Positions 863-26,221 of a stretch of 64,000 nucleotides of DNA are shown one piece after another (positions within the stretch are counted from its first letter, which is position 1; each line of letters begins with the position of its first letter). The DNA comes from Patescibacteria group bacterium. GTDB lineage: Bacteria > Patescibacteriota > Minisyncoccia > Phycocordibacterales > UBA1006. The notes beneath the pieces were generated by a model, which worked only from the letters and a program-made list of their open reading frames with translations, was not told where the DNA came from and searched no databases. Where the stretch lies: the NCBI GenBank assembly GCA_028286885.1, contig JAQBQS010000016.1:2809-66808 (forward strand), in the 5' to 3' direction. The position numbers were made by a program, and so were the translations under genes.

Positions 863-933
863 GCGGTGCTAGTTTAGTGGTAGAATAACTGCCTTCCAAG
901 CAGTGGATCAGGGTTCGATTCCCTGGCGCCGCA
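863..933 (+). tRNA. tRNA-Gly (anticodon TCC)
   Basis: Cloverleaf: acceptor GCGGTGC/GCGCCGC (one GU), anticodon stem CTGC/GCAG with loop CTTCCAA, T-arm CAGGG-TTCGATT-CCCTG, discriminator A; no encoded CCA. Confidence 0.85.
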
Positions 934-2599
934 CAGTAAGAGATTTCTCGTCTAGTTTTTCTTCATTTATCTTGAAAATGAAGGTCAGTTTTGGTGTTCG
1001 ACTAACTATTTCTTCGTATGTCGGAAACTCTTCGAAGAAGAGGCTATAAAGTGTGATCTGTTCTCGCTTATTCTCAATGTTTTCAAGTATTTTTGTAGGG
1101 TGTTCCATTAAATCTTTTGTATTTTTTATAAATTCGTGAATTTGGTCTTCGTTGATATCGAGCTTGTTTCTTTCGTTTTGTGCCCGACTCAGTTCAATAT
1201 GGATACTCTCATACTCCTTTTCGAGGTCGGCTTTTACGATTGGAGAATTTGCAGCTTCAATTGCTCTAAGTTTCAACTGTTTTTGTTCTTTTATTTCGAG
1301 AATGCGCTTGCTTATAAAGTTTGATTTGTCAGCAACAGTACCTTCTTCTCGGCGATATTTATAAACTAAAGCCCTCTCAATTATCGAGATAAATTCATCA
1401 GTAAACTTAATAGTTGCAAGGAAATTATTGAAAGTATCCTCGGCTTCCTTTCGAGGAAAGGCATATCTTTCGTGTTTTCTAGAACAATGATACGCAGGAT
1501 ATTTGTTTCCTAATTTTCCTGTCGAAAAACTTCCCAAAAGTGGTTTGCCACAGAGCGGGCATTTTAAGATATTTTTAAAAGGGAAGTCGGGTCGGAAATC
1601 ATGTCTTTTGTCCAAGAATTTTTCAAGCTTTTGGTCATAAAGAATTTCAAACCTATTTTCTCCAAGAGAATTTATGTAGACCTTGCCACGATTGGCTTTA
1701 TTAAAAATATCCATTGAAACAATCCCATTCCATTTTCCTTTAATAGGAAGGTAGTTTGTCCATTTTTCACAAACTATTCCGCAGTAAATTGGTCTTGTTA
1801 TTATTCTTTGGAGAGTTTTAACTGTAAGTCCGAGCGATTCCGTCTTTCCTGTAATTTTTGTTTTTGAATTATTCCATTTCTTGCGAACTTTTGATTTAAA
1901 TCCCATTGCGTTTATCTTCGAAACAATTTCCTCATCAGAGTAAATACCCTCCGCACGAAGTCTAAACATTTCAGAATAGTATTTACTTCTCTCGGGATCA
2001 GGTTCAAGAATGTATCGTTTCTTCATATCAACGTCCACCTTTTTTGAAACATATCCGTCGTTGGCTGGTCCCATATGATAACCGTCCCTCACCAAAAGAA
2101 TTTGTGCCTCGATAAGCTGTCGAAGGATTCTCTTTCGATCCATTTCCGATCGTTTGACTTCCATTAGCTCGCTCGCCTCGCTTGGGCTTTCTGTAGACCA
2201 CTCATACTTTAAATTATATTTATCAAAGTGGTTTTTTTCTGCCTGAATGATACCAGTAACATCTCGTAATTCAGTTCCGTGTTTTAGTAGTTCCGATTTG
2301 ATCTCGTAATAATTGTCTACTTTTCCGCGTGTCATTCGACTGATTATGCGAATAATAAGGAACTTAACTTTCCCGGGATTGTCCTTTAAAATTTGGATTA
2401 TTTCGTTGTAAACAGGGCGTGATTTTGTTTTTCCGCTAAAAGGCTCCTCGAATACTTTGTTATCAGGGAATAGTGTATATCCGTTGCGGTCGCAGTAATT
2501 TCTTATATCTTGCTCCTGTCCTGCAAGACTATCGCCGCCGACTGCTTGTTTTGCAGTGCTTACGCGCGCATATCCAATTACATAAATTGGCTCATTCAT
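908..2599 (-). CDS. large serine recombinase (integrase); its 3' end overlaps the tRNA-Gly 3' end by 26 nt
   Basis: N-terminal resolvase catalytic motif YARVSTAKQ, recombinase domain, Cys-rich zinc-ribbon CPLCGKPL...YHCSRKH, C-terminal coiled-coil; 563 aa. Confidence 0.85.
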   Translation of the reverse strand: MNEPIYVIGYARVSTAKQAVGGDSLAGQEQDIRNYCDRNGYTLFPDNKVFEEPFSGKTKSRPVYNEIIQILKDNPGKVKFLIIRIISRMTRGKVDNYYEIKSELLKHGTELRDVTGIIQAEKNHFDKYNLKYEWSTESPSEASELMEVKRSEMDRKRILRQLIEAQILLVRDGYHMGPANDGYVSKKVDVDMKKRYILEPDPERSKYYSEMFRLRAEGIYSDEEIVSKINAMGFKSKVRKKWNNSKTKITGKTESLGLTVKTLQRIITRPIYCGIVCEKWTNYLPIKGKWNGIVSMDIFNKANRGKVYINSLGENRFEILYDQKLEKFLDKRHDFRPDFPFKNILKCPLCGKPLLGSFSTGKLGNKYPAYHCSRKHERYAFPRKEAEDTFNNFLATIKFTDEFISIIERALVYKYRREEGTVADKSNFISKRILEIKEQKQLKLRAIEAANSPIVKADLEKEYESIHIELSRAQNERNKLDINEDQIHEFIKNTKDLMEHPTKILENIENKREQITLYSLFFEEFPTYEEIVSRTPKLTFIFKINEEKLDEKSLTVRRQGIEP

Positions 2600-2808
2600 A
2601 AATCTATTTTAACATTATCCGTTTGTTTTGACTCATTTTCAAACCAAATTTTATAAGCTGTATTAACAAATATCATAGAAGCTTCATAAATTTTTTGTAC
2701 CTGAAAATCTGAGAACTTTTTCAGCTCCTCATGAGTAAGTACATTCTTTTTGAATTCTTCCAAGCTCATTATTTTGAGATTAAAATCGAGATAACAAAAA
2801 CGCCCCAA
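2596..2808 (-). CDS. small hypothetical protein, translationally coupled upstream of the recombinase (possible directionality factor)
   Basis: 70-aa ORF overlapping the recombinase start by 4 nt (ATGA); no recognizable motif. Confidence 0.3.
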   Translation of the reverse strand: MGRFCYLDFNLKIMSLEEFKKNVLTHEELKKFSDFQVQKIYEASMIFVNTAYKIWFENESKQTDNVKIDL

Positions 2809-3210
2809 TATAAGGGCTTTTTGTAAGCAAATTACCTGTTCGTAGAAATACGTAGAATTGGTAATTAACTAGGCAAAAAGCCTAACGAATTACCAACTCG
2901 ACGCATTTATTTATCCTGAAGTAAACATATCGTAACTTGTAGATTCATCGGAGATCTCTAGTGTTTTTTAGCCACTTTCTAACTTTTTCTAACCTCCAAA
3001 TGAAACAGGATGAGACATAATCAGGGTAAAATGCAATGTTGATCCGTTTTCTCGATATGATCGCTCCCTGCAATAGTTTTTCGAGAAAACTTTATTAAAT
3101 TATCTGGGGCAATGAACTGACTGACTTTATTATAGCAGTTGTTTTGAAAAAATCACCTCCTAGACATTACAGGATTAAAATAGTACGCTTTCTAACATAA
3201 CCTAATAAAA

Positions 3211-3358
3211 GTAGCCTAAACTCGTCTAACGGCGAGCATGGTGAAAGCAATGTCCAGTCAGACATAAAAAACCCATCATATGGGGTTTGTCTGACTGGCT
3301 GCATTTGGAAACGAATGCAGAGGGCGAAAGTCCTCAACCTATGTGGTGGGCTTTTTGT
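3211..3358 (+). ncRNA. conserved structured RNA motif, copy A (unidentified family)
   Basis: ~88% identical to 23134-23279. Stems CCAGTCAGACA/TGTCTGACTGG and TGCATT/AATGCA are replaced in copy B by CCAGTAAAGAT/ATCTTTACTGG and GTATC/GATAC (compensatory). Invariant hairpin CCCATCATATGGG, GGGC-GAAA-G(t/c)(c/t)C tetraloop hairpin, ends GGGCTTTTTG. Confidence 0.6.
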
Positions 3359-3389
3359 ATCTCATTTATTAGAACAGTCAGACTAATTT

Positions 3390-3728
3390 ATGAAATTTAA
3401 TCCTTTTAAGATAATTTTAAGTGTCGCCAGTCTTATTTTAGCTGGAAGTGTGTTTTATTACTTTATTATTTATTTGCCCTCTGAAAAGCAGATGGAACAT
3501 TTTCGAACCGAACAGGGGAATAGTTTGAGAAACTCGGCATTAAATCATTGTTTTCAGGATGTTCAGTCTGAATATCAAGATGATATGACGAAAAACTGTT
3601 TCCAAGAAGGTTTTGATGATTGCTCCCTGAATCCACATGTTGCAGGAAATATGATAGTTGTTTTGAATAATAAATTACAAGCAGATAAGCAAATTTGTAT
3701 TAAAGAGTACGGGACATGGAATCCATAA
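3390..3728 (+). CDS. small membrane-anchored Cys-containing hypothetical protein
   Basis: N-terminal TM helix ILSVASLILAGSVFYYFIIYL; 112 aa; lies immediately downstream of RNA motif copy A. Confidence 0.4.
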   Translation: MKFNPFKIILSVASLILAGSVFYYFIIYLPSEKQMEHFRTEQGNSLRNSALNHCFQDVQSEYQDDMTKNCFQEGFDDCSLNPHVAGNMIVVLNNKLQADKQICIKEYGTWNP

Positions 3729-3732
3729 TAAA

Positions 3733-3778
3733 AACAGCTTAAAACCCCTAATTTAGGGGTTTTAAGCTGTTTTTATTT
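3733..3778. terminator. rho-independent terminator
   Basis: aaaaacAGCTTAAAACCCCTAAtttaGGGGTTTTAAGCTgttttt perfect hairpin with U-tract. Confidence 0.6.
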
Positions 3779-3871
3779 ACTATTTAGAGTGCCCGTATTG
3801 CCTAACTTTTTCTTACCTTGAAACCTTTTTATTTCGCACTTTTTCGTACCAACATTTTTAATTTAAAGTGC

Positions 3872-4165
3872 CTAACTGGCAACATTAAACTTGATATTTC
3901 TTGTTTTTTCCAAAATATCCAAAGTAGCTTTTACAGAAGAATTAGAAGTATTTTTTAAGATTAGCCTATCGCCGTATTTACTGACCAATGGGCTTAAAAA
4001 TTCATCTCCCCATGATGGAGCGAATGTTAAAATTCCAGAAAAATCCAAAATAAGCTCTTCTGAATCAGAAAAGTTTTTTAATTCAGGTTCAAATGCTGTA
4101 AAAGCTTCTCTTCCTCGATCCCGAAATACCGATGTGTTTCCAAATTTAACTAATTGAATTTCCAT
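3872..4165 (-). CDS. STAS-like (DUF4325-type) small protein
   Basis: 97 aa; ...FSGILTFAPSWGDEFLSPLVSKYG...; resembles STAS-like partners encoded next to GHKL ATPases (by recollection of family features). Confidence 0.4.
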   Translation of the reverse strand: MEIQLVKFGNTSVFRDRGREAFTAFEPELKNFSDSEELILDFSGILTFAPSWGDEFLSPLVSKYGDRLILKNTSNSSVKATLDILEKTRNIKFNVAS

Positions 4166-4183
4166 AATGTTTATTATACTAAG

Positions 4184-4915
4184 CTAATATTTAATATAAG
4201 CAACACAGCCGCGTAACCAACGAACGGCAGGCCTAATATCTAAATTTGAAGAGTCATGTTTAATTTCCAGTTCTGCGTTACCACTTTGAAATCTAAGTCC
4301 GATTAGATTATTTGTTACGACAGTCCTTACAAATTTTAATCCGTTCCCACGAGACTCCTGAGTCCTTCCAGAAACAACCTCGGTAAATGCTGTATTTATA
4401 GCACTACCATCATCTATCAGGTCTGGGAGGGCTTGCCTTAATGTTGTTAAGATCCCTAAGCCTCGGTCAGCGAGCACAACCTCTCTTTTGTCTGTGTCGT
4501 ATGCAAAAAATATGCCTGCTTCGTCTGGCCAGCGACCTAAGTTATGATCGAAAGAGTTTCCTCCAATTTCTCCAGAAACCGATACCACCAAAGAAAATAT
4601 ATCTTCGAGGAGAGGTGATTTCAGAAGCTCTTCTTGAAACTTGCCAAGCTTGGTCTGAAAAACTGCACTATTCTCAGCATATGCATATCTAGGGATGTGC
4701 GGTATTTCTTTTGAGTCAGCAGTTGCCCATTCAAAAGCTGTTTGAAAAAGATTGTTTGGAAAGAACTCCAGATCAATCTTTCTGTAAAATCTATCCCCGC
4801 CAGGTGATTTCCTAACGGCTCGCAATTTTCCACTCTCGTCCCAACGCCTTAGCGTTGTTATTGAGACATTTAAAATTTTTGCTGCCTCCCCTACTGGTAA
4901 TAGTTCATTCTCCAT
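4184..4915 (-). CDS. HTH (MerR/excisionase-type) fused to GHKL-family ATPase (RsbW/SpoIIAB-like kinase fold)
   Basis: N-term LPVGEAAKILNVSITTLRRWDESGKL (HTH_17-like); GHKL N-box GEIGGNSFDH, G1 box DRGLGI, G2 box SRGNGLKF. Confidence 0.5.
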   Translation of the reverse strand: MENELLPVGEAAKILNVSITTLRRWDESGKLRAVRKSPGGDRFYRKIDLEFFPNNLFQTAFEWATADSKEIPHIPRYAYAENSAVFQTKLGKFQEELLKSPLLEDIFSLVVSVSGEIGGNSFDHNLGRWPDEAGIFFAYDTDKREVVLADRGLGILTTLRQALPDLIDDGSAINTAFTEVVSGRTQESRGNGLKFVRTVVTNNLIGLRFQSGNAELEIKHDSSNLDIRPAVRWLRGCVAYIKY

Positions 4916-5078
4916 AATTTAAGGTTATATTTTGAATTATACACTAATTTAGGCAAAAACTTGTGTAATACCTACTCATAATATATGCTAAATCTACTCA
5001 TTGCAACAAACATTGATTTTATACCTTTAATCCCTATAAATTGCAATCTGATTAATAGCTTATAATCAAAACATATTT

Positions 5079-5366
5079 ATGGCAGTAAGAATTACTTGTA
5101 TTAACAAAGATAATGGAAATCATTTAAATCCTCATGCAGGGATAACGCACTTCGGATGGGTAAATGAACAAACCAGGGCTACTGGTAAAAGCACGAAAGC
5201 TGTTATGGTTGATTTTTTGACTAAACAAGGAGGGAAGGCATATGTAAAAGATGCTAGAGGGAATATCGCTTATGTTGGCGTTATTACGAATCATATTCCT
5301 CCATATCTTAGAACCTACGCGGATGGTAAGTGGTCGGATAATTTGCTCAGTTTGGGCGAATGTTAA
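5079..5366 (+). CDS. small conserved hypothetical protein (DUF3892-like)
   Basis: MAVRITCINKDNGNHLNPHAGITHFGWVNE...; 95 aa; family assignment by recollection, low certainty. Confidence 0.3.
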   Translation: MAVRITCINKDNGNHLNPHAGITHFGWVNEQTRATGKSTKAVMVDFLTKQGGKAYVKDARGNIAYVGVITNHIPPYLRTYADGKWSDNLLSLGEC

Positions 5367-5369
5367 TTT

Positions 5370-6104
5370 ATGAAGTTGGTTTTTATTGATGAGACAGATC
5401 GGCAGGCAAGTTCCACAGTCCACGCATTCTTTTCGATTTGTGGGTTGGTTATTGATGAGTCTGAAATTATGGCAACGACAAACGAACTTGAAGAAATTAA
5501 GAAAAAATACAATTTTTCGAATCTAAAGGAATCTAGAAAAAGCGGTCTTTCCGAACAGGAAAAAGTTATTATTTCTACAGAAGTATTTGATTGCCTCAAA
5601 AAACATAACGCATCAATTATTTCAATCGTCTTGGGAGATTTTTCCATGAGCTTTAACATGCCCAAAGATGACCTTTACATGGGAGCAATACAATTCTTGA
5701 TGGAGCGTTTCTGTCTTATTTTAATGAAAGTAAATAGTTGTGGTTTGGCAATATTTGATTGTACAGAAAAGAGATTTGAGAAAAAGCTTAGAGAAAAATT
5801 TTACGAATATATTCAGACTCAAACCGTTCATATGGCTTGGGAGTCAAAACCAAGAGGTCCCATGAGAGATTTCATTCAACCAACTTTATTTTTTGCAGAT
5901 GATGAGCAAAGCATTCTTATTCAAGCGGTTGATCTTATTGCTGTTTCTTTAAACAGTGCGATCGTTAATATTACGCAAAGCAACCCAAAAATCATGGTTG
6001 CAGATCTTCCTTCTGGTAATAAGTTTCTAAACATATACTGGCCACTTTTTGCTTCAAGTTCTTCAGGTAAAGTCGAGGGGTGGGGTGTAAAAGTTTGGGA
6101 TTAA
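5370..6104 (+). CDS. DUF3800-like protein (predicted RNase H-like fold)
   Basis: N-terminal MKLVFIDETD... matches the hydrophobic-DESG start typical of DUF3800; 4-nt intergenic gap to the preceding gene suggests an operon. Confidence 0.4.
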   Translation: MKLVFIDETDRQASSTVHAFFSICGLVIDESEIMATTNELEEIKKKYNFSNLKESRKSGLSEQEKVIISTEVFDCLKKHNASIISIVLGDFSMSFNMPKDDLYMGAIQFLMERFCLILMKVNSCGLAIFDCTEKRFEKKLREKFYEYIQTQTVHMAWESKPRGPMRDFIQPTLFFADDEQSILIQAVDLIAVSLNSAIVNITQSNPKIMVADLPSGNKFLNIYWPLFASSSSGKVEGWGVKVWD

Positions 6105-20965: not shown

Positions 20966-21040
20966 TCCCCTGTAGCTCAGCGGTAGAGCAATCGACTGTT
21001 AATCGATTGGTCGTAGGTTCGATCCCTACCGGGGGAGCCA
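20966..21040 (+). tRNA. tRNA-Asn (anticodon GTT), CCA encoded
   Basis: Acceptor TCCCCTG/CGGGGGA, D-arm GCTC-AGCGGTA-GAGC, anticodon stem ATCGA/TCGAT with loop CTGTTAA, T-arm GTAGG-TTCGATC-CCTAC, discriminator G, CCA. Confidence 0.85.
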
Positions 21041-21304
21041 GTTAGGGGTACTAGCAAGTTCTAGTACCAAGTTCCAAGGTTCTCGCATTGTAAACTCTAG
21101 GTTTTTTCCATCTACAAGCGGGTTCTGAATGAGATAATTCACAAAAGCTCTTTTTTCATGTGTATCAGAACTTTCAAAAAGTTCAGTTGCATCATGAGCA
21201 AGATTAAGTATTACGCCTACAGTGATTTTGTAAGTGTGATCTGCTTTTGTGTGCTCATCAAGTTCGATAGAAAGTCGCGCCTGTCGGTCTTTAAGCTGTT
21301 GCAA
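21026..21304 (-). pseudogene. C-terminal remnant of a large serine recombinase, overlapping the tRNA-Asn 3' end
   Basis: 92-aa ORF; ...DTHEKRAFVNYLIQNPLVDGKNLEFTMREP... parallels the C-terminal ...NKREQITLYSLFFEEFPTYEEIVSRTPKLTFIFKINE of the intact recombinase at 908-2599; no catalytic domain upstream; same 3' overlap geometry with a tRNA. Confidence 0.5.
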
Positions 21305-21389: not shown

Positions 21390-21953
21390 TTGATGAATAT
21401 GCAAGAAGATAAAAGGATCGCTACAATGGAAGCTCTGTATGAGAATTCAAAGAGCTTAATAACATCCGCCGACTCTCTTATAGAGTCAAAAATGCCCGTT
21501 GGGCATGCTTTTGCGCTACTTCAAACAGCTTGTGAGGAAATCGGAAGAATGTTGGCAATTTTACAAATCCTTCAGAGTGTTAAAGTTGAGCTTCCAAGGA
21601 ATAGGCATACTGTTAAGCACTCCCATTTTCTTAGATTTATGTCGATTCAGCCTGTAGGGCATCGACCTTACTTTGAGATCATTTCCGAGATTACTGGCTT
21701 TGAAATCAATCAAGAGAACTCAAAGGACGATGTTGTTCTTGATAAAATTCAGAAGTTTAGAGAGTCTTGCTTATATGTAAACGTTAATTTCGATAACAAT
21801 CATACGATTTCATCCCCAACTGAAGAGAGAATACAAGGTAAGGTTGAGCAGGTAAAGGAGCTAAAAGAAATTCTTGTAAATTATATGAATGGCATGCTTA
21901 AACCACTTATAGAAGCTCACAAAAACGGGAAGACGATATTCTCTAAATCTTAA
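21390..21953 (+). CDS. HEPN-like / AbiV-like protein
   Basis: 187 aa, predicted all-alpha; Rx4H motif (RHTVKH) within LPRNRHTVKH; size and composition resemble AbiV-type HEPN proteins (by recollection). Confidence 0.4.
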   Translation: MMNMQEDKRIATMEALYENSKSLITSADSLIESKMPVGHAFALLQTACEEIGRMLAILQILQSVKVELPRNRHTVKHSHFLRFMSIQPVGHRPYFEIISEITGFEINQENSKDDVVLDKIQKFRESCLYVNVNFDNNHTISSPTEERIQGKVEQVKELKEILVNYMNGMLKPLIEAHKNGKTIFSKS

Positions 21954-21959
21954 GGTCTT

Positions 21960-22925
21960 ATGGAAAATCTAAAATCTAAAAAACAAATACTTTTAACAGG
22001 GGCTGGCTTTTCAAAAAATTTCGGAGGCTTTTTAGCCAAGGAAATGTTCGATGAGATCTATAACAGCGACCATCTTAAAAAGTTTCCAACATTAAGAGAT
22101 AAGCTTCTTGCCACAGGTGATTTTGAGTTTTTTTATGCGGAAGCAATGCTCGATAAAAACCTAACTCCCGAAGAAAAAGGTGCTGTTAAAGCTGCAGTGC
22201 AAGAAGCTTACAATAACCTGGATAAAATCTTTCAGAGCTCTTTTATATCCAATGGTGATTTGCTAATGAGCTGGGGTGATTTTCTAAGTAAAAACTTTTC
22301 TGGTAATGGGTCGGCTGTAGGGTTATTTTTTACTCTCAATCAGGATTTGTTGCTGGAAAGAAGTTTTGGGAATGTTTGCCCTGGAGTCAAGTCATTTAGA
22401 ATGAACGGGCTTGGACAAGCAGATTCATTTTCTTCCTCTCATTCGGTAGTTCTACCACAAGACACTAAAAGGGCAGAGGCAGACATTTTAGTGGGTAACC
22501 TTTCCTATTTTAAGTTACATGGTTCCTATGGGTGGAAATCTTCTGACGGTACAGATCAGATGGTTGTAGGAAGTAATAAGTCAGAGCTGATTGAAAAGGA
22601 GCCGATCCTGAAGCTTTATTTCGATGTTTTTAAGAAGGCTATCGCCGAGGGAAACAAAAATATTTTAATAATAGGGTATGGGTTCAGGGACAAGCATATC
22701 AACGATGTCTTGATGGACGGGGTTGAAAACCATGGATTAAAAATAGTTTGTATAGGTAACTCATCAATAGCTGATGTTATTAAAAAAGCGGAAAATGAAT
22801 ACCCAGAATGCGTACCTTTACTAAGAAGGGTTGATAAGTACTTCCCTTACCCTTTAGAAAGAATCTTAAATAATAATGCAGGAGACACAAGCTTTCGAGA
22901 TAGGATCGAGGAAAATATTCGATAA
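21960..22925 (+). CDS. SIR2-like (defense-type sirtuin) NAD-binding domain protein
   Basis: N-terminal KQILLTGAGFSKNFGG (GAGxS NAD-binding loop) and FTLNQDLLLE (TTNYD-like motif of SIR2_2/ThsA-type domains); 321 aa. Confidence 0.55.
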   Translation: MENLKSKKQILLTGAGFSKNFGGFLAKEMFDEIYNSDHLKKFPTLRDKLLATGDFEFFYAEAMLDKNLTPEEKGAVKAAVQEAYNNLDKIFQSSFISNGDLLMSWGDFLSKNFSGNGSAVGLFFTLNQDLLLERSFGNVCPGVKSFRMNGLGQADSFSSSHSVVLPQDTKRAEADILVGNLSYFKLHGSYGWKSSDGTDQMVVGSNKSELIEKEPILKLYFDVFKKAIAEGNKNILIIGYGFRDKHINDVLMDGVENHGLKIVCIGNSSIADVIKKAENEYPECVPLLRRVDKYFPYPLERILNNNAGDTSFRDRIEENIR

Positions 22926-23036: not shown

Positions 23037-23133
23037 AGTATTGACGATTTATCGAATATATTGTAATGAAAAATCACCATATTAATATGGTGATTTTTCA
23101 TTTATGTGCTATAAGATAAATACAACTAAATCA

Positions 23134-23279
23134 GTAGCCTAAACTCTTGAGTGATCGAGAGCATGGTGAAATAAACCCAGTAAAGATTAAAAAACCCATC
23201 ATATGGGGCTATCTTTACTGGTCGTATCTGGAAACGGATACGGAGGGCGAAAGCTCTCACCTATGTGGTGGGCTTTTTG
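23134..23279 (+). ncRNA. conserved structured RNA motif, copy B
   Basis: See copy A (3211-3358); compensatory stem substitutions; ends GGGCTTTTTG. Confidence 0.6.
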
Positions 23280-23423
23280 CTTGAATTATTAGTTTTATAT
23301 TTCGACTATATCTTCTAAGAGAAATTATTTTTTGAGCTAAGCCTATAACTTCTCTTTAGAAATAATTTAACTCGCTTTGATAAGGTAATTTACCTATAAA
23401 AAGCCTTCAGTAAATGCATTTTC

Positions 23424-24425
23424 ATGGAAAAAAATAACAAAAAGAGTTCGTTAGGAAAAATTGTTGCGATTATGTTCTTTAGCGGATTTGTTCTTCTGAT
23501 TGGGTGTCTTGTCTTAGGATTCAAATATGTATGCCGGCACGAGGCATGCTCGATTTCTTCCCAGAAGCCCTATGTGGTTTCCATAAAAACTGAGGAAGGG
23601 AAAGGTGTGCATGTTGAAAATAAAGGATCTATTTTCTCGATTTTTTACAAAGTCCAGAATGGAAACGGACCCGCTGAAGATTTTTTTAACGTTGATACAA
23701 GTAAGTTTGCAATTCAGGACTTGTCAGTCGATTTGGAGAGCCCCTTTTTTAGTTGTTCTCAGCGAAGAGAGAAGAAGATTATATATGTCATTTTAGATGT
23801 TTCGAAATCGGTTGTTCAATCGGCAGGCGAGGACTATTTCAGCAGAGTTACTTCTACCATACAAAATATTTTAGCCTCGGACAGTCTTGAGCCTGGCGAT
23901 CAAATTCGAATTAGATTTATGGGAAATAATAATGACGCGCTTGATAATCTTGATTTTACCGGACCTCGTTTCAAATATTCAGTTCAAAAGAATTCAGTTC
24001 AAAAGAAAATAACTCTTACTCTTACGGATTACTCGCGTGATCATTTAACGAAATGTCAAAATACATCAGGCGCGATTTCTCTAGAAGATGTTATTGGTCA
24101 TATTCAAAGTTCATATGAGAAACGCATCCAAACTCCGGATAATACGACGAATATTTCCGGTTTGTTGAAACAGATATCAAATGAAGTTTCTTTGGAACAG
24201 GAGCGATTTGAATCGGTTCGATACATCATCTTTACGGACGGTGACTCTACTGACGAATACGACGGATGCGATTACTTGTCCGCAGATAAATGCGGAACTG
24301 ACATCAAAAGTCTCAACTTGAATCATGACCTTTCAAATCGCGCGTATGTCATCTGGGTCAAGGATTCGTGGACACAAGGAGTGTTTAGAAAACTATTCGA
24401 CGGCATGTCCGTTAATTTCCAATAG
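23424..24425 (+). CDS. membrane-anchored vWA (von Willebrand factor A) domain protein
   Basis: N-terminal TM helix; MIDAS DxSxS = ILDVSKS; downstream IIFTDGDSTDE typical vWA motif; 333 aa. Confidence 0.5.
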   Translation: MEKNNKKSSLGKIVAIMFFSGFVLLIGCLVLGFKYVCRHEACSISSQKPYVVSIKTEEGKGVHVENKGSIFSIFYKVQNGNGPAEDFFNVDTSKFAIQDLSVDLESPFFSCSQRREKKIIYVILDVSKSVVQSAGEDYFSRVTSTIQNILASDSLEPGDQIRIRFMGNNNDALDNLDFTGPRFKYSVQKNSVQKKITLTLTDYSRDHLTKCQNTSGAISLEDVIGHIQSSYEKRIQTPDNTTNISGLLKQISNEVSLEQERFESVRYIIFTDGDSTDEYDGCDYLSADKCGTDIKSLNLNHDLSNRAYVIWVKDSWTQGVFRKLFDGMSVNFQ

Positions 24426-24428
24426 ATT

Positions 24429-25757
24429 ATGAAATTATTTAATTCTGACTACAACAAAGGATACAGGGCTGCCAAAAGCTATGTGCGGATTATCTCGCTT
24501 CCGAAAGACGTTACAAACAATATCAAGTCGTTTCTTGATTCCGTTTATGTAAGTGCTGTGAGCGGACTTGCCCATATCCTCCAAGAAAATCTCAGCTATG
24601 CGGAAAACAGAATACGAACTATTGAAGTAGAATTGAAATCACTGAAAGATCGTAAAGAAAAACTGATTACGGAAGCAAATCAAATCGACGAGAAAGAAGT
24701 AACGGAACTTTTTTTGGGACAGGCTTCTGAGATCGAAGCCCGGATACAGGAATTTAATAGGAACATCGAACTTCTCAATGATCAGCTCAATGAATTAAAA
24801 AAAGAACACATTCAGGTTTCTTCGAAAGAAAAGCCAGTTGAAAAGACAAATAGCAAATCAGCTAGCTTCATCGGAAGTGTTATTCAAAAGTTACAGGAAT
24901 CAGCAAAAGAGTTTTCTACGATCGGACCCTGGTTTCTTCTGGTTTTGGTTGATTATGGGATTGCAGTTTCGTTTTTTAGTCAATATGCTGAAGGGCAGGG
25001 TTTTCTAGTTGAGGTAGTTGTCGGGTATCTTCTTCCTCTTGCTATAACACTTATTTCGATGGTTGCCATGCATATGGTAATAGATGGAGTGAAAAAACTT
25101 CAGTCCGACGATGCAGCTCCATCCACGGCTATATCAACTGTCGCGGCAGTCGTTATTTTGGCTTTGATTTTCTTCGGAATCCTTTTCATGAGAGTTCTGA
25201 ATGATGGTGACAATCTTGTCATGCAAATCGTCATTTGGGTTCTCTTCGTAGGACTTGTTATCGTAGTTGGATACGAACTTCATAAGAAAGGAAAAAGCCC
25301 TGGTGTCATTATCGAATATCCTGCAAAGATGATCGTATGTACATTAGGTCTCATATGCGGAGCAATTGCATGGCCATTCGAGCAGATCCACAATGTAACA
25401 ACGAAACAGAGAAACATAGGTCCCGAAGCGGAACTTAAGAAGAGTATGGTGTACATCCAAGAGCGCATCAATAACCAATTTGCTGAAAAAGCTAGGCTTG
25501 AAGGAAAGCTTACTAATCTTCCGAGAGAGAAAATGCAGTTTACTTCCACGAATATCGCGATTCTGAGACAGCAGAAGATGAACATGGCTGAGAAGGATAT
25601 TCAAGAAATAGATGCAATCATTTACGATAATCAAGCCGAACTTGTAAAATCAAAAGCAGCCGAAAAATCATTAAAAGATCGTTTGATGGAAATACGAACG
25701 GGATCAAACGATGGCGCCATGAAACAGCTTATGAAAAGATTGAGGCAAAAGTCGTAG
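24429..25757 (+). CDS. coiled-coil / 4-TM / coiled-coil membrane protein
   Basis: Long heptad-like N- and C-terminal segments flanking four hydrophobic helices (GPWFLLVLVDYGIAVSFF..., LLPLAITLISMVAM..., VAAVVILALIFFGILF, IVIWVLFVGLVIVVGY); 4-nt gap after the vWA gene. Confidence 0.45.
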   Translation: MKLFNSDYNKGYRAAKSYVRIISLPKDVTNNIKSFLDSVYVSAVSGLAHILQENLSYAENRIRTIEVELKSLKDRKEKLITEANQIDEKEVTELFLGQASEIEARIQEFNRNIELLNDQLNELKKEHIQVSSKEKPVEKTNSKSASFIGSVIQKLQESAKEFSTIGPWFLLVLVDYGIAVSFFSQYAEGQGFLVEVVVGYLLPLAITLISMVAMHMVIDGVKKLQSDDAAPSTAISTVAAVVILALIFFGILFMRVLNDGDNLVMQIVIWVLFVGLVIVVGYELHKKGKSPGVIIEYPAKMIVCTLGLICGAIAWPFEQIHNVTTKQRNIGPEAELKKSMVYIQERINNQFAEKARLEGKLTNLPREKMQFTSTNIAILRQQKMNMAEKDIQEIDAIIYDNQAELVKSKAAEKSLKDRLMEIRTGSNDGAMKQLMKRLRQKS

Positions 25758-25758
25758 T

Positions 25759-25890
25759 ATGTTTGCGTTCATACTCTTTGCTATTTTCTGTTATGGTATC
25801 TACGAGCTTTTCCGTCATGGAAAAATTGGAATTGCGATATTTCTTATTCTCGCATTCCTAGTTTGGGCGTTCTTCAGCTTTTTGTAAAAA
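25759..25890 (+). CDS. small hydrophobic peptide (43 aa), below the ORF-track cutoff
   Basis: ATG at 25759 one nt after the upstream stop; MFAFILFAIFCYGIYELFRHGKIGIAIFLILAFLVWAFFSFL = two TM-like segments; followed by a terminator hairpin at about 25896-25925. Confidence 0.3.
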
Positions 25891-25975
25891 TACATAAATG
25901 CTTGCAAGTGCAGGCATTTGTTTTGAAACTCAGGTGGTTTATCAAAAATTTAACTCTATATGATAAAGTATTAAT

Positions 25976-26221
25976 ATGAAATTTATCAAAAATATATCCC
26001 TCGGGATTATTGCCCTTCTTGTTGTTTTTGCCATGGCGCATCCGGCCTTTGCGAAATCTTCGTATTATACGAATTCATCGCATGTCAAAGTTCATGTTCC
26101 GACATGGGAACAGCGTGTTCCTGTTGGTGCGACGGCGCAGTGCAGAGATCGGTCTTACAGTTACAGTCAGCATCGTCGCGGGACGTGCTCGGGGCATAAA
26201 GGAGTTGCGAGCTGGCTATAA
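25976..26221 (+). CDS. secreted DUF3761-like protein (paralog of 61222-61473)
   Basis: Signal peptide + CRDRSYSYSQHRRGTCSGHKGVASWL, matching the CxDGxYSxSxHRxGTCSxHGGV-type DUF3761 signature. Confidence 0.5.
   Translation: MKFIKNISLGIIALLVVFAMAHPAFAKSSYYTNSSHVKVHVPTWEQRVPVGATAQCRDRSYSYSQHRRGTCSGHKGVASWL

Follow-up and report, generated by a model that had tools for sequence, protein, structure and literature searches.

A conserved two-gene membrane module of Patescibacteria that pairs a vWA-domain protein with a subunit of an undescribed family

In a stretch of 64,000 nucleotides (the 64-kb window) from the metagenome-assembled genome (MAG) of a Patescibacteria group bacterium, two adjacent genes on the plus strand, which we call A (23424..24425, 333 aa) and B (24429..25757, 442 aa), encode a conserved two-protein membrane module. 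Its first subunit carries a von Willebrand factor A (vWA) domain with a metal ion-dependent adhesion site (MIDAS), and its second belongs to a protein family that has not been described. Tentatively, and from sequence comparisons, we read A-B as an extracytoplasmic, ligand-binding envelope complex that may be linked to extracellular nuclease activity and is carried here as the cargo of a genomic island; we regard this as possible and as somewhat less than probable. Patescibacteria represent a large share of bacterial diversity, are attached to other microbes and cannot make their own nucleotides, and to our knowledge most of their surface machinery is unknown. A-B provides a concrete candidate for their host-interaction or DNA-scavenging equipment, because it is conserved and lineage-restricted, combines a probably surface-exposed vWA subunit with a partner of unknown fold bearing a buried carboxylate, and has secreted SNase-type nucleases as neighbours.

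A first-pass annotation had described a unit of three genes at 23134-25925, separated by gaps of 4 nt and 1 nt. The ORF list returned all three open reading frames (ORFs) head-to-tail on the plus strand at these coordinates: A, B and a small ORF at 25759..25887. The 1-nt gap between B and the small ORF was as described, while the A-B gap is 3 nt rather than 4 nt. The small ORF does encode a peptide with two hydrophobic helices, of 42 aa and not 43, since its 43 codons include the stop. The exact proteins are present in GenBank as the hypothetical proteins JWM20_868, JWM20_869 and JWM20_870 of the MAG, the last of these being the 42-aa product.

To define the conserved part of this unit, the ORFs of 25 related loci were classified by BLASTP against reference sets. 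These loci fall into 13 distinct lineages, 10 of which have readable flanks. An A-type gene directly precedes B in all 13 lineages, with a spacing that ranges, in the loci read, from an 8-nt overlap to 14 nt. This constant adjacency and tight spacing indicate that A and B form an obligate pair, which is probably translationally coupled. The unit is thus one of two genes and not of three, as none of the other loci has the 42-aa ORF after B, which rules it out as a conserved third subunit. Elsewhere, the position after B is occupied by an SNase gene, by a DUF6804 protein gene, by a gene for a 186-aa protein with two transmembrane (TM) helices, or by nothing. JWM20_870 forms a singleton cluster and has no Pfam match even at E<=10, nor any match in PADLOC. 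We considered the possibility that it is a fragment of a DUF6804 protein, and rejected it because DUF6804 proteins gave no tblastn match in the window, where no DUF6804 gene was found at any position. The 42-aa ORF is either an accessory gene of this lineage or an ORF that arose by chance, and lies outside the conserved module.

Protein A has a lysine-rich N-terminus and one TM helix (aa 13-31 by hydropathy; nt 23460-23516), followed by a small beta domain (aa 51-91) and by the vWA domain (aa 118-333; nt 23775-24422). The DxSxS sequence of the MIDAS (D125-V-S127-K-S129; 23796..23810) and the matching TDG motif (T271-D272-G273; 24234-24242), both on the plus strand, are invariant in the family alignments. 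Across the eight A sequences, D125, S127, S129, T179, T271-D272-G273 and four cysteines are all invariant, and T179 is presumably the MIDAS threonine. The N-terminal TM helix and the vWA domain that the first-pass annotation had assigned to A were recovered, and its MIDAS motifs (LDVSKS and FTDG) are kept throughout the family. The Pfam VWA model was matched by 5 of the 8 A-family members (best E 9.2e-6; window A alone, E 0.031). A has the Rossmann-like alpha/beta fold of vWA domains and the DxSxS...T...D arrangement of the MIDAS, to which a small beta domain and an inserted beta hairpin are added. It joins the vWA superfamily as a new member that has diverged from the others.

The genes found upstream of distant B relatives were identified as A-type by hhalign (99.8% and 96%). 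Their products (408-420 aa) have a longer N-terminal region, of 50-60 residues, one TM helix and, about 100 residues later, the DxSxS sequence. This sequence and a (T/N)DG motif are kept in the distant A-type proteins of four loci (L014, L015, L017 and L019; loci are designated here by such numbers), and two distant A-type proteins carry an N-terminal CxxC...CxxC zinc ribbon. Protein A is most simply read as a type II membrane protein with its vWA domain outside the cytoplasmic membrane. This topology is suggested by the lysine-rich N-terminus and the charge distribution, by the N-terminal zinc ribbon of the distant relatives and by the four conserved cysteines in the ectodomain. The TM helix itself contains no conserved charged residue in the A-family alignment. 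Of note, gene A of the window contains a perfect 15-nt tandem duplication at 23977-24006 (ATTCAGTTCAAAAGA twice), encoding SVQKNSVQKK; homologues have, e.g., DIAKNSVQKK at this site, and the length is unchanged.

Protein B has a coiled coil or helical hairpin near its N-terminus (aa 32-133; nt 24522-24827). Next comes a hydrophobic block (aa 165-317; nt 24921-25379), and then a C-terminal helix as long as 93 residues (aa 332-424; nt 25422-25700), followed by a short terminal helix. Its AlphaFold2 model is entirely helical (pLDDT 76.5, pTM 0.34), with five hydrophobic helices within aa 143-328. The coiled coils proposed by the first-pass annotation to flank the membrane helices were thus recovered. 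Its count of four TM helices is too low, as five segments (aa 165-183, 196-214, 235-253, 263-281 and 299-317) are strongly hydrophobic in 29 of 29 divergent relatives. The loops between them alternate between net-negative and net-positive charge, as expected of real TM helices, and the segment that follows TM5 is rich in lysine and arginine. Most relatives have an additional, sixth TM helix at the N-terminus. Basic residues are absent ahead of this helix and several follow it, a pattern that places the first coiled coil of B in the cytoplasm.

Two sites stand out in the alignment of the 29 B proteins. One is an acidic residue in the middle of TM1, D175 (codon 24951..24953, plus strand), which is Asp in 26 sequences and Glu in the other 3, and is followed by Tyr, Phe or Trp in 28. 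The second is a C-terminal motif, I-R-T-G-S-N-D-G-A (aa 422-430; 25692..25718, plus strand), with the family consensus [LI]-R-x-G-S-[DN]-[DE]-[GA], in which G425 is conserved in 29, S426 in 24 and R423 in 21 sequences. Conservation was also observed (numbers out of 29) for F183 (27), P203 (20), T207 (23), R255 (21), F273 (29), P298 (28) and E318 (21). The invariant carboxylate in TM1 suggests that B is more than an anchor for A.

The first-pass annotation could name no described system with this architecture, and none emerged from our searches. Neither A nor B has a significant Pfam or PADLOC match. In PADLOC-DB v2, A and the 42-aa ORF had no match, and B had only sub-threshold matches of its coiled-coil segment, to LmuB, JetC and DndD (best E 2.5e-5, 21.7 bits). 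A B profile run against PDB sequences retrieved coiled-coil or chance G-protein-coupled receptor matches, none better than E 0.004. Foldseek returned no match at E<=1e-3 and no TM-score above 0.27, the query being a weak one because it was a monomer model with low pTM. The only Pfam family matched by more than two B members was DUF4407 (4 of 29, best E 7e-4), whose members likewise combine TM helices and a coiled coil. We did not retain B as a DUF4407 protein, because the best match listed scored 17.7 bits for a gathering score of 31.3 and, in the one member inspected, was confined to the coiled-coil segment, which makes it a compositional similarity. Matches to the type III secretion translocator IpaB and to the ClyA-family toxins AhlB and MakA corresponded to generic helical hairpins with large root-mean-square deviations (TM-score <=0.16). 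B differs from these proteins by its five strongly hydrophobic 19-residue helices, with a sixth in most relatives, which are of the type found in resident integral membrane proteins and not in soluble toxins.

Systems containing vWA proteins were also compared with the pair. The Bat (Bacteroides aerotolerance) operon (BatA/BatB) has a MoxR AAA+ ATPase, DUF58 and tetratricopeptide-repeat partners, none of which is found around A-B in the window or in the related loci. The vWA pilus adhesins (GBS104, PitA, Mfa5 and S. sanguinis PilB) have a sortase signal or a pilin module, whereas A has neither. Furthermore, neither the Bat proteins nor the vWA adhesins have a counterpart of B, which is always paired with A. 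A literature search on DUF4407, on DUF6804 and on Patescibacteria with a vWA protein and a nuclease found nothing relevant. B, and the A-B arrangement with or without an SNase, are therefore new by elimination, i.e. absent from the catalogues, which is distinct from a demonstrated new mechanism.

We considered the possibility that A-B is an ion-driven machine analogous to the stators MotAB, ExbBD and GldLM or to ZorAB of the Zorya system, in which proton flow through the carboxylate of B would power work passed on via the coiled coils to A. The resemblance lies in the organization, as in Zorya ZorA/ZorB and in MotAB, ExbBD, TolQR and GldLM, of a two-gene operon for a polytopic coiled-coil subunit and a single-pass subunit with an extracytoplasmic domain. 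It extends to the carboxylate inside the membrane, acidic in 29 of 29 B proteins as it is invariant in stators, and to the conservation of Pro203, Thr207 and Pro298 in TM helices. Yet the carboxylate of A-B is on the polytopic subunit and the single TM helix of A carries no conserved charge, and the five TM helices of B are joined by short loops, in contrast with the large cytoplasmic domains of MotA and ExbB. A lacks both attributes of a stator partner, a conserved carboxylate in its TM helix and a peptidoglycan-binding domain, its ectodomain being vWA and not OmpA-like. By comparison with zorAB, the gene order is reversed and ZorC and ZorD genes are missing. No match to MotA_ExbB (PF01618) or to the PADLOC ZorA and ZorB models was found at E<=1 for A and B, or at E<=0.01 for 29 B members, and no similarity was detected between the TM-domain fold of B and solved stators. 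The first-pass annotation had proposed checking B for a ZorA- or MotA-like fold; with the low-pTM model, no MotA, ExbB, TolQ, GldL or ZorA appeared in any result list. As B was negative in every stator membership test run, we consider a stator-like machine very unlikely.

About as improbable, in our estimation, is a related view in which A-B would be a new kind of ion-coupled, Patescibacteria-specific envelope machine, unrelated in sequence and fold to known stators, which would act as a dedicated feeding device of these episymbionts. The mid-membrane carboxylate of B would then convert ion flow into movement of the coiled coils. The extracellular vWA subunit, and through it a co-encoded secreted nuclease, would be driven or gated by the moving coiled coils, so that the cell attaches to host bacteria and harvests their DNA.

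Among the 10 lineages whose flanks could be read, 6 have an SNase gene (PF00565) directly adjacent to A-B. Each adjacent SNase has a signal peptide or a TM anchor, and two of them have an Excalibur calcium-binding domain. The SNase gene is upstream of the pair in L001 and L019, downstream on the same strand in L011-13/L016, L014 and L017/18, and downstream on the opposite strand in L015. The fact that the linkage is kept in such varied positions and orientations argues for selection on it, and suggests a functional connection. DUF6804 small membrane proteins follow the pair in three lineages, and proteins with two TM helices are encoded near it in L002 and L010. In L019 (1-9335 of a contig from GCA_042218065.1), the A-B pair of a distant lineage ends a run of same-strand genes, including those for secreted proteases of the Trypsin_2 and subtilisin (S8) types, a DUF805 membrane protein, a 432-aa SNase and a 244-aa protein with a zinc ribbon and a TM helix, weakly similar to the N-terminus of A. 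The run resembles a gene cluster for degradative enzymes that are exported.

Taken together, the vWA domain, the SNases encoded beside the pair, the DUF6804 proteins and the secreted proteases of L019 suggest a role at the outer face of the membrane. With a secreted nuclease beside most relatives, the pair looks like cell-surface equipment rather than phage defence. In the reading that we favour, the A-B complex would bind a ligand at the cell surface through its MIDAS, with B as a membrane platform or transducer for A, and would work with the secreted SNase-type nucleases encoded beside most relatives. The complex would probably catch or retain DNA, or material from the host surface, which would then be degraded outside the cell and taken up by these nucleotide-auxotrophic epibionts. 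Patescibacteria live on other cells and must import nucleotides, which fits such surface capture. The copy in the window would be one that is devoid of the usual nuclease partner and to which the lineage-specific 42-aa ORF has been appended.

Several observations weigh against this surface-capture reading. No SNase gene is adjacent to the pair in the window, in L002, in L010 or in the L004-type loci, and none was found anywhere in the 64-kb window. Neither protein shows homology to proteins of DNA binding, adhesion or nuclease handling, and the step to a function is taken from gene neighbourhood alone. The invariant TM1 carboxylate hints at ion coupling, which would be superfluous for a passive scaffold. 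The side of the C-terminal coiled coil of B is ambiguous, as five TM helices predict that it is outside, while the lysine- and arginine-rich segment that follows TM5 suggests that it is inside. Finally, the sample is small, comprising 13 lineages, many of them on short contigs.

In the first-pass annotation, the position of the unit next to a HEPN-SIR2 gene pair had led to the proposal of a membrane-disrupting or sensing defence module. In such an abortive-infection-type anti-phage system, the vWA subunit would sense phage or a perturbation of the envelope, and B would oligomerise through its coiled coils and depolarise or permeabilise the membrane. Consistent with this idea, A-B of the window lies in a low-GC, tRNA-flanked island beside the HEPN(AbiV)-SIR2 pair (21390..21953 and 21960..22925, plus strand), and other copies are in mobile, variable contexts, beside serine recombinases, a transposase or a tyrosine integrase. 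The family is also rare and patchy, as are many defence systems. In addition, the 162-aa membrane protein encoded directly upstream of A in L010 (113-601) weakly resembles 2TM effectors and holins; its matches to the PADLOC '2TM effector' (E 9.5e-4) and to the Pfam Saf_2TM and holin families (E 0.04-0.05) are marginal. Yet this was the only match when 10 neighbour proteins from four other loci (L002, L007, L010 and L014) were searched against PADLOC at E<=0.001, and A and B themselves have no significant match there. In the 12 other lineages, neither a HEPN nor a SIR2 domain was noted next to the pair, and signal-peptide SNases and DUF6804 proteins recur there instead, so that the neighbourhood invoked for defence is unique to the window, and is the sole point there in favour of a membrane-acting defence module. 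Even in the window, the HEPN-SIR2 genes and A-B are separate units, with a small RNA (sRNA) gene and a terminator between them. A secreted SNase, moreover, cannot act on intracellular phage DNA. Lastly, phage collections (IMG/VR and INPHARED) yielded no relatives, which also led us to reject a phage or prophage origin of A-B. A defence function thus appears unlikely, if less so than the stator-like machine. Should it prove true, A-B would be the first defence module defined in Patescibacteria that rests on a vWA membrane sensor. The first-pass annotation had also named what would speak against its proposal, namely housekeeping contexts in core genomes; these were not seen, the contexts being variable and beside tRNA genes or recombinases.

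Such contexts raise the question of whether A-B serves the mobile element itself, through surface or entry exclusion or through cell-cell contact for the transfer of the element. In L002 and L010, the neighbours of the pair include large serine recombinases, and the window contains the remnant of a recombinase gene. A tyrosine integrase and an ArdC-N-like gene are near the pair in L019, and tRNA genes are close to it in the window, in the L004-type loci and in L014. However, no conjugation genes (relaxase, coupling protein or VirB4) were seen in any locus, several copies (L004-type loci and L016) have ordinary genes around them and lack a recombinase in flanks of up to 10 kb, and the linkage to SNase and DUF6804 genes is independent of the presence of a recombinase. 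We therefore give little credence to a role in element exclusion or transfer.

Relatives of the two proteins are scarce. When 1.84 billion representatives were searched exhaustively with a hidden Markov model, the B family amounted to only 44 clusters, and nearly all of its full-length members have 430-515 aa. In a word-indexed search of 5.8 billion proteins, 2 relatives of B were found, or 7 with a profile, and 8 relatives of A. Other collections added one species genome in GTDB, a Candidatus Paceibacterota MAG, and three further metagenome contigs. The B family is real but rare, and among named organisms it is confined to Patescibacteria so far. Its importance has to be weighed against this rarity, in a clade that is full of hypothetical proteins. 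Whichever function applies, B represents a family for which Pfam, PADLOC and the PDB have no entry.

The island that carries A-B in the window, also recognized by the first-pass annotation, extends over 4.9 kb, from about 21040 to about 25970, with a GC content of 0.33-0.42, vs about 0.50-0.55 outside. Its left boundary is a tRNA-Asn (GTT) gene (20966..21040, plus strand; identified by ARAGORN, Rfam tRNA score 70.8 bits), at which the GC content falls from 0.53 to 0.42. The 3' end of this gene overlaps that of a 92-aa ORF on the minus strand (21026..21304). By tblastn, this ORF matches the C-terminal part of 'recombinase family protein' genes on Legionella and Neochlamydia plasmids (E 4e-8 and 7e-6), and its identity as a C-terminal recombinase remnant relies solely on these plasmid annotations. 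We also considered that it might be a paralogue of the intact serine recombinase of the window or of the recombinases of L002 and L010, and discarded this possibility, as BLASTP gave no match. With its compositional break, flanking tRNA gene and recombinase gene, the region has the hallmarks of a genomic island. A-B in the window is its cargo, acquired horizontally, and the island itself, at tRNA-Asn, is that of a recombinase element which has since decayed. Since the recombinase is truncated, the element is probably immobile.

The HEPN-SIR2 genes, which lie in the same island and outside the A-B module, are 6 nt apart. They were identified through the Pfam families HEPN_AbiV (E 6.8e-14) and SIR2_2 (E 5.8e-9). 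The SIR2 protein matches many PADLOC SIR2 models, the best being a pAgo-associated one (E 1.6e-14). The HEPN protein has no PADLOC match, and its exact sequence as called is not in the protein collection. We regard the two genes as a candidate defence pair in their own right. Downstream of them come a hairpin, formed by a 12-bp inverted repeat (23070-23097), then an sRNA gene of the LOOT family with its own terminator-like hairpin, and finally an AT-rich spacer of about 150 nt that leads to gene A.

The RNA motif that the first-pass annotation had placed upstream of A is a bona fide LOOT RNA (Rfam RF03000). This copy (copy B; RNA at 23136-23258, or 23136..23272 on the plus strand with its hairpin) scores 92.6 bits, and a second one in the window (copy A, 3213-3335) 81.3 bits, for a gathering score of 46.4, and both cover model positions 1-121 of 121. 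The two copies are 82% identical over 250 nt and differ by paired changes in their stems. Both end in the same terminator-like hairpin, CCTATGTGGTGGG followed by CTTTTTG, which in copy B is at 23256-23272. LOOT copy B is an sRNA gene of its own, placed between the SIR2 gene and A. That it could be an obligate partner or a cis-regulator of A-B was rejected, as no LOOT match is found in any other A-B locus and as it has its own terminator-like hairpin. Both copies lie in islands of low GC content that have a tRNA gene at their start, and each is upstream of a gene on its own strand whose product is membrane-anchored. Integrative elements of this type may be marked by LOOT, or may have it as a component.

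On the 3' side of the 42-aa ORF, the terminator reported by the first-pass annotation corresponds to a 12-bp hairpin (25894-25921) followed by UUUUG, a likely intrinsic terminator of the unit (25894..25926, plus strand). The hairpin is present as described, with an RNAfold energy of -16 kcal/mol; its z score is a modest -1.75, and it was not listed by a consensus terminator scan. A-B and the 42-aa ORF appear to form a transcription unit separate from both HEPN-SIR2 and LOOT. A repeat search showed that this unit is bracketed exactly by an imperfect 33-nt direct repeat on the plus strand, with copies at 23355..23387 and 25938-25970 (79% identity, spacing 2583). This repeat may be the mark of a cassette insertion, or it may have arisen by chance in AT-rich DNA. 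A partial third copy (25982-26001) lies inside the first codons of a DUF3761 gene (25976-26221; 81 aa, signal-peptide-like N-terminus, E 1.3e-19), which lies exactly at the right GC boundary of the island. The product of this gene starts with MKF. In the other island of the window, LOOT is followed directly by a gene for a small secreted protein that also starts with MKF. Because of the direct repeat and of these MKF starts, a cassette consisting of the A-B unit may have entered between LOOT and the MKF-type gene.

This other island (island 1; about 900-6100, GC content 0.34-0.38) follows the same plan, with a tRNA-Gly gene (863-934), an intact recombinase and the second LOOT copy. Its recombinase is a large serine recombinase of 563 aa (908..2599, minus strand), and the 3' ends of the recombinase gene and of tRNA-Gly overlap. 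The same geometry at tRNA-Gly and tRNA-Asn suggests elements that integrate into the 3' ends of tRNA genes and rebuild them. Island 1 contains further uncharacterised genes at 3390..3728, 3872..4165 (minus strand), 4184..4915 (minus strand), 5079..5366 and 5370..6104.

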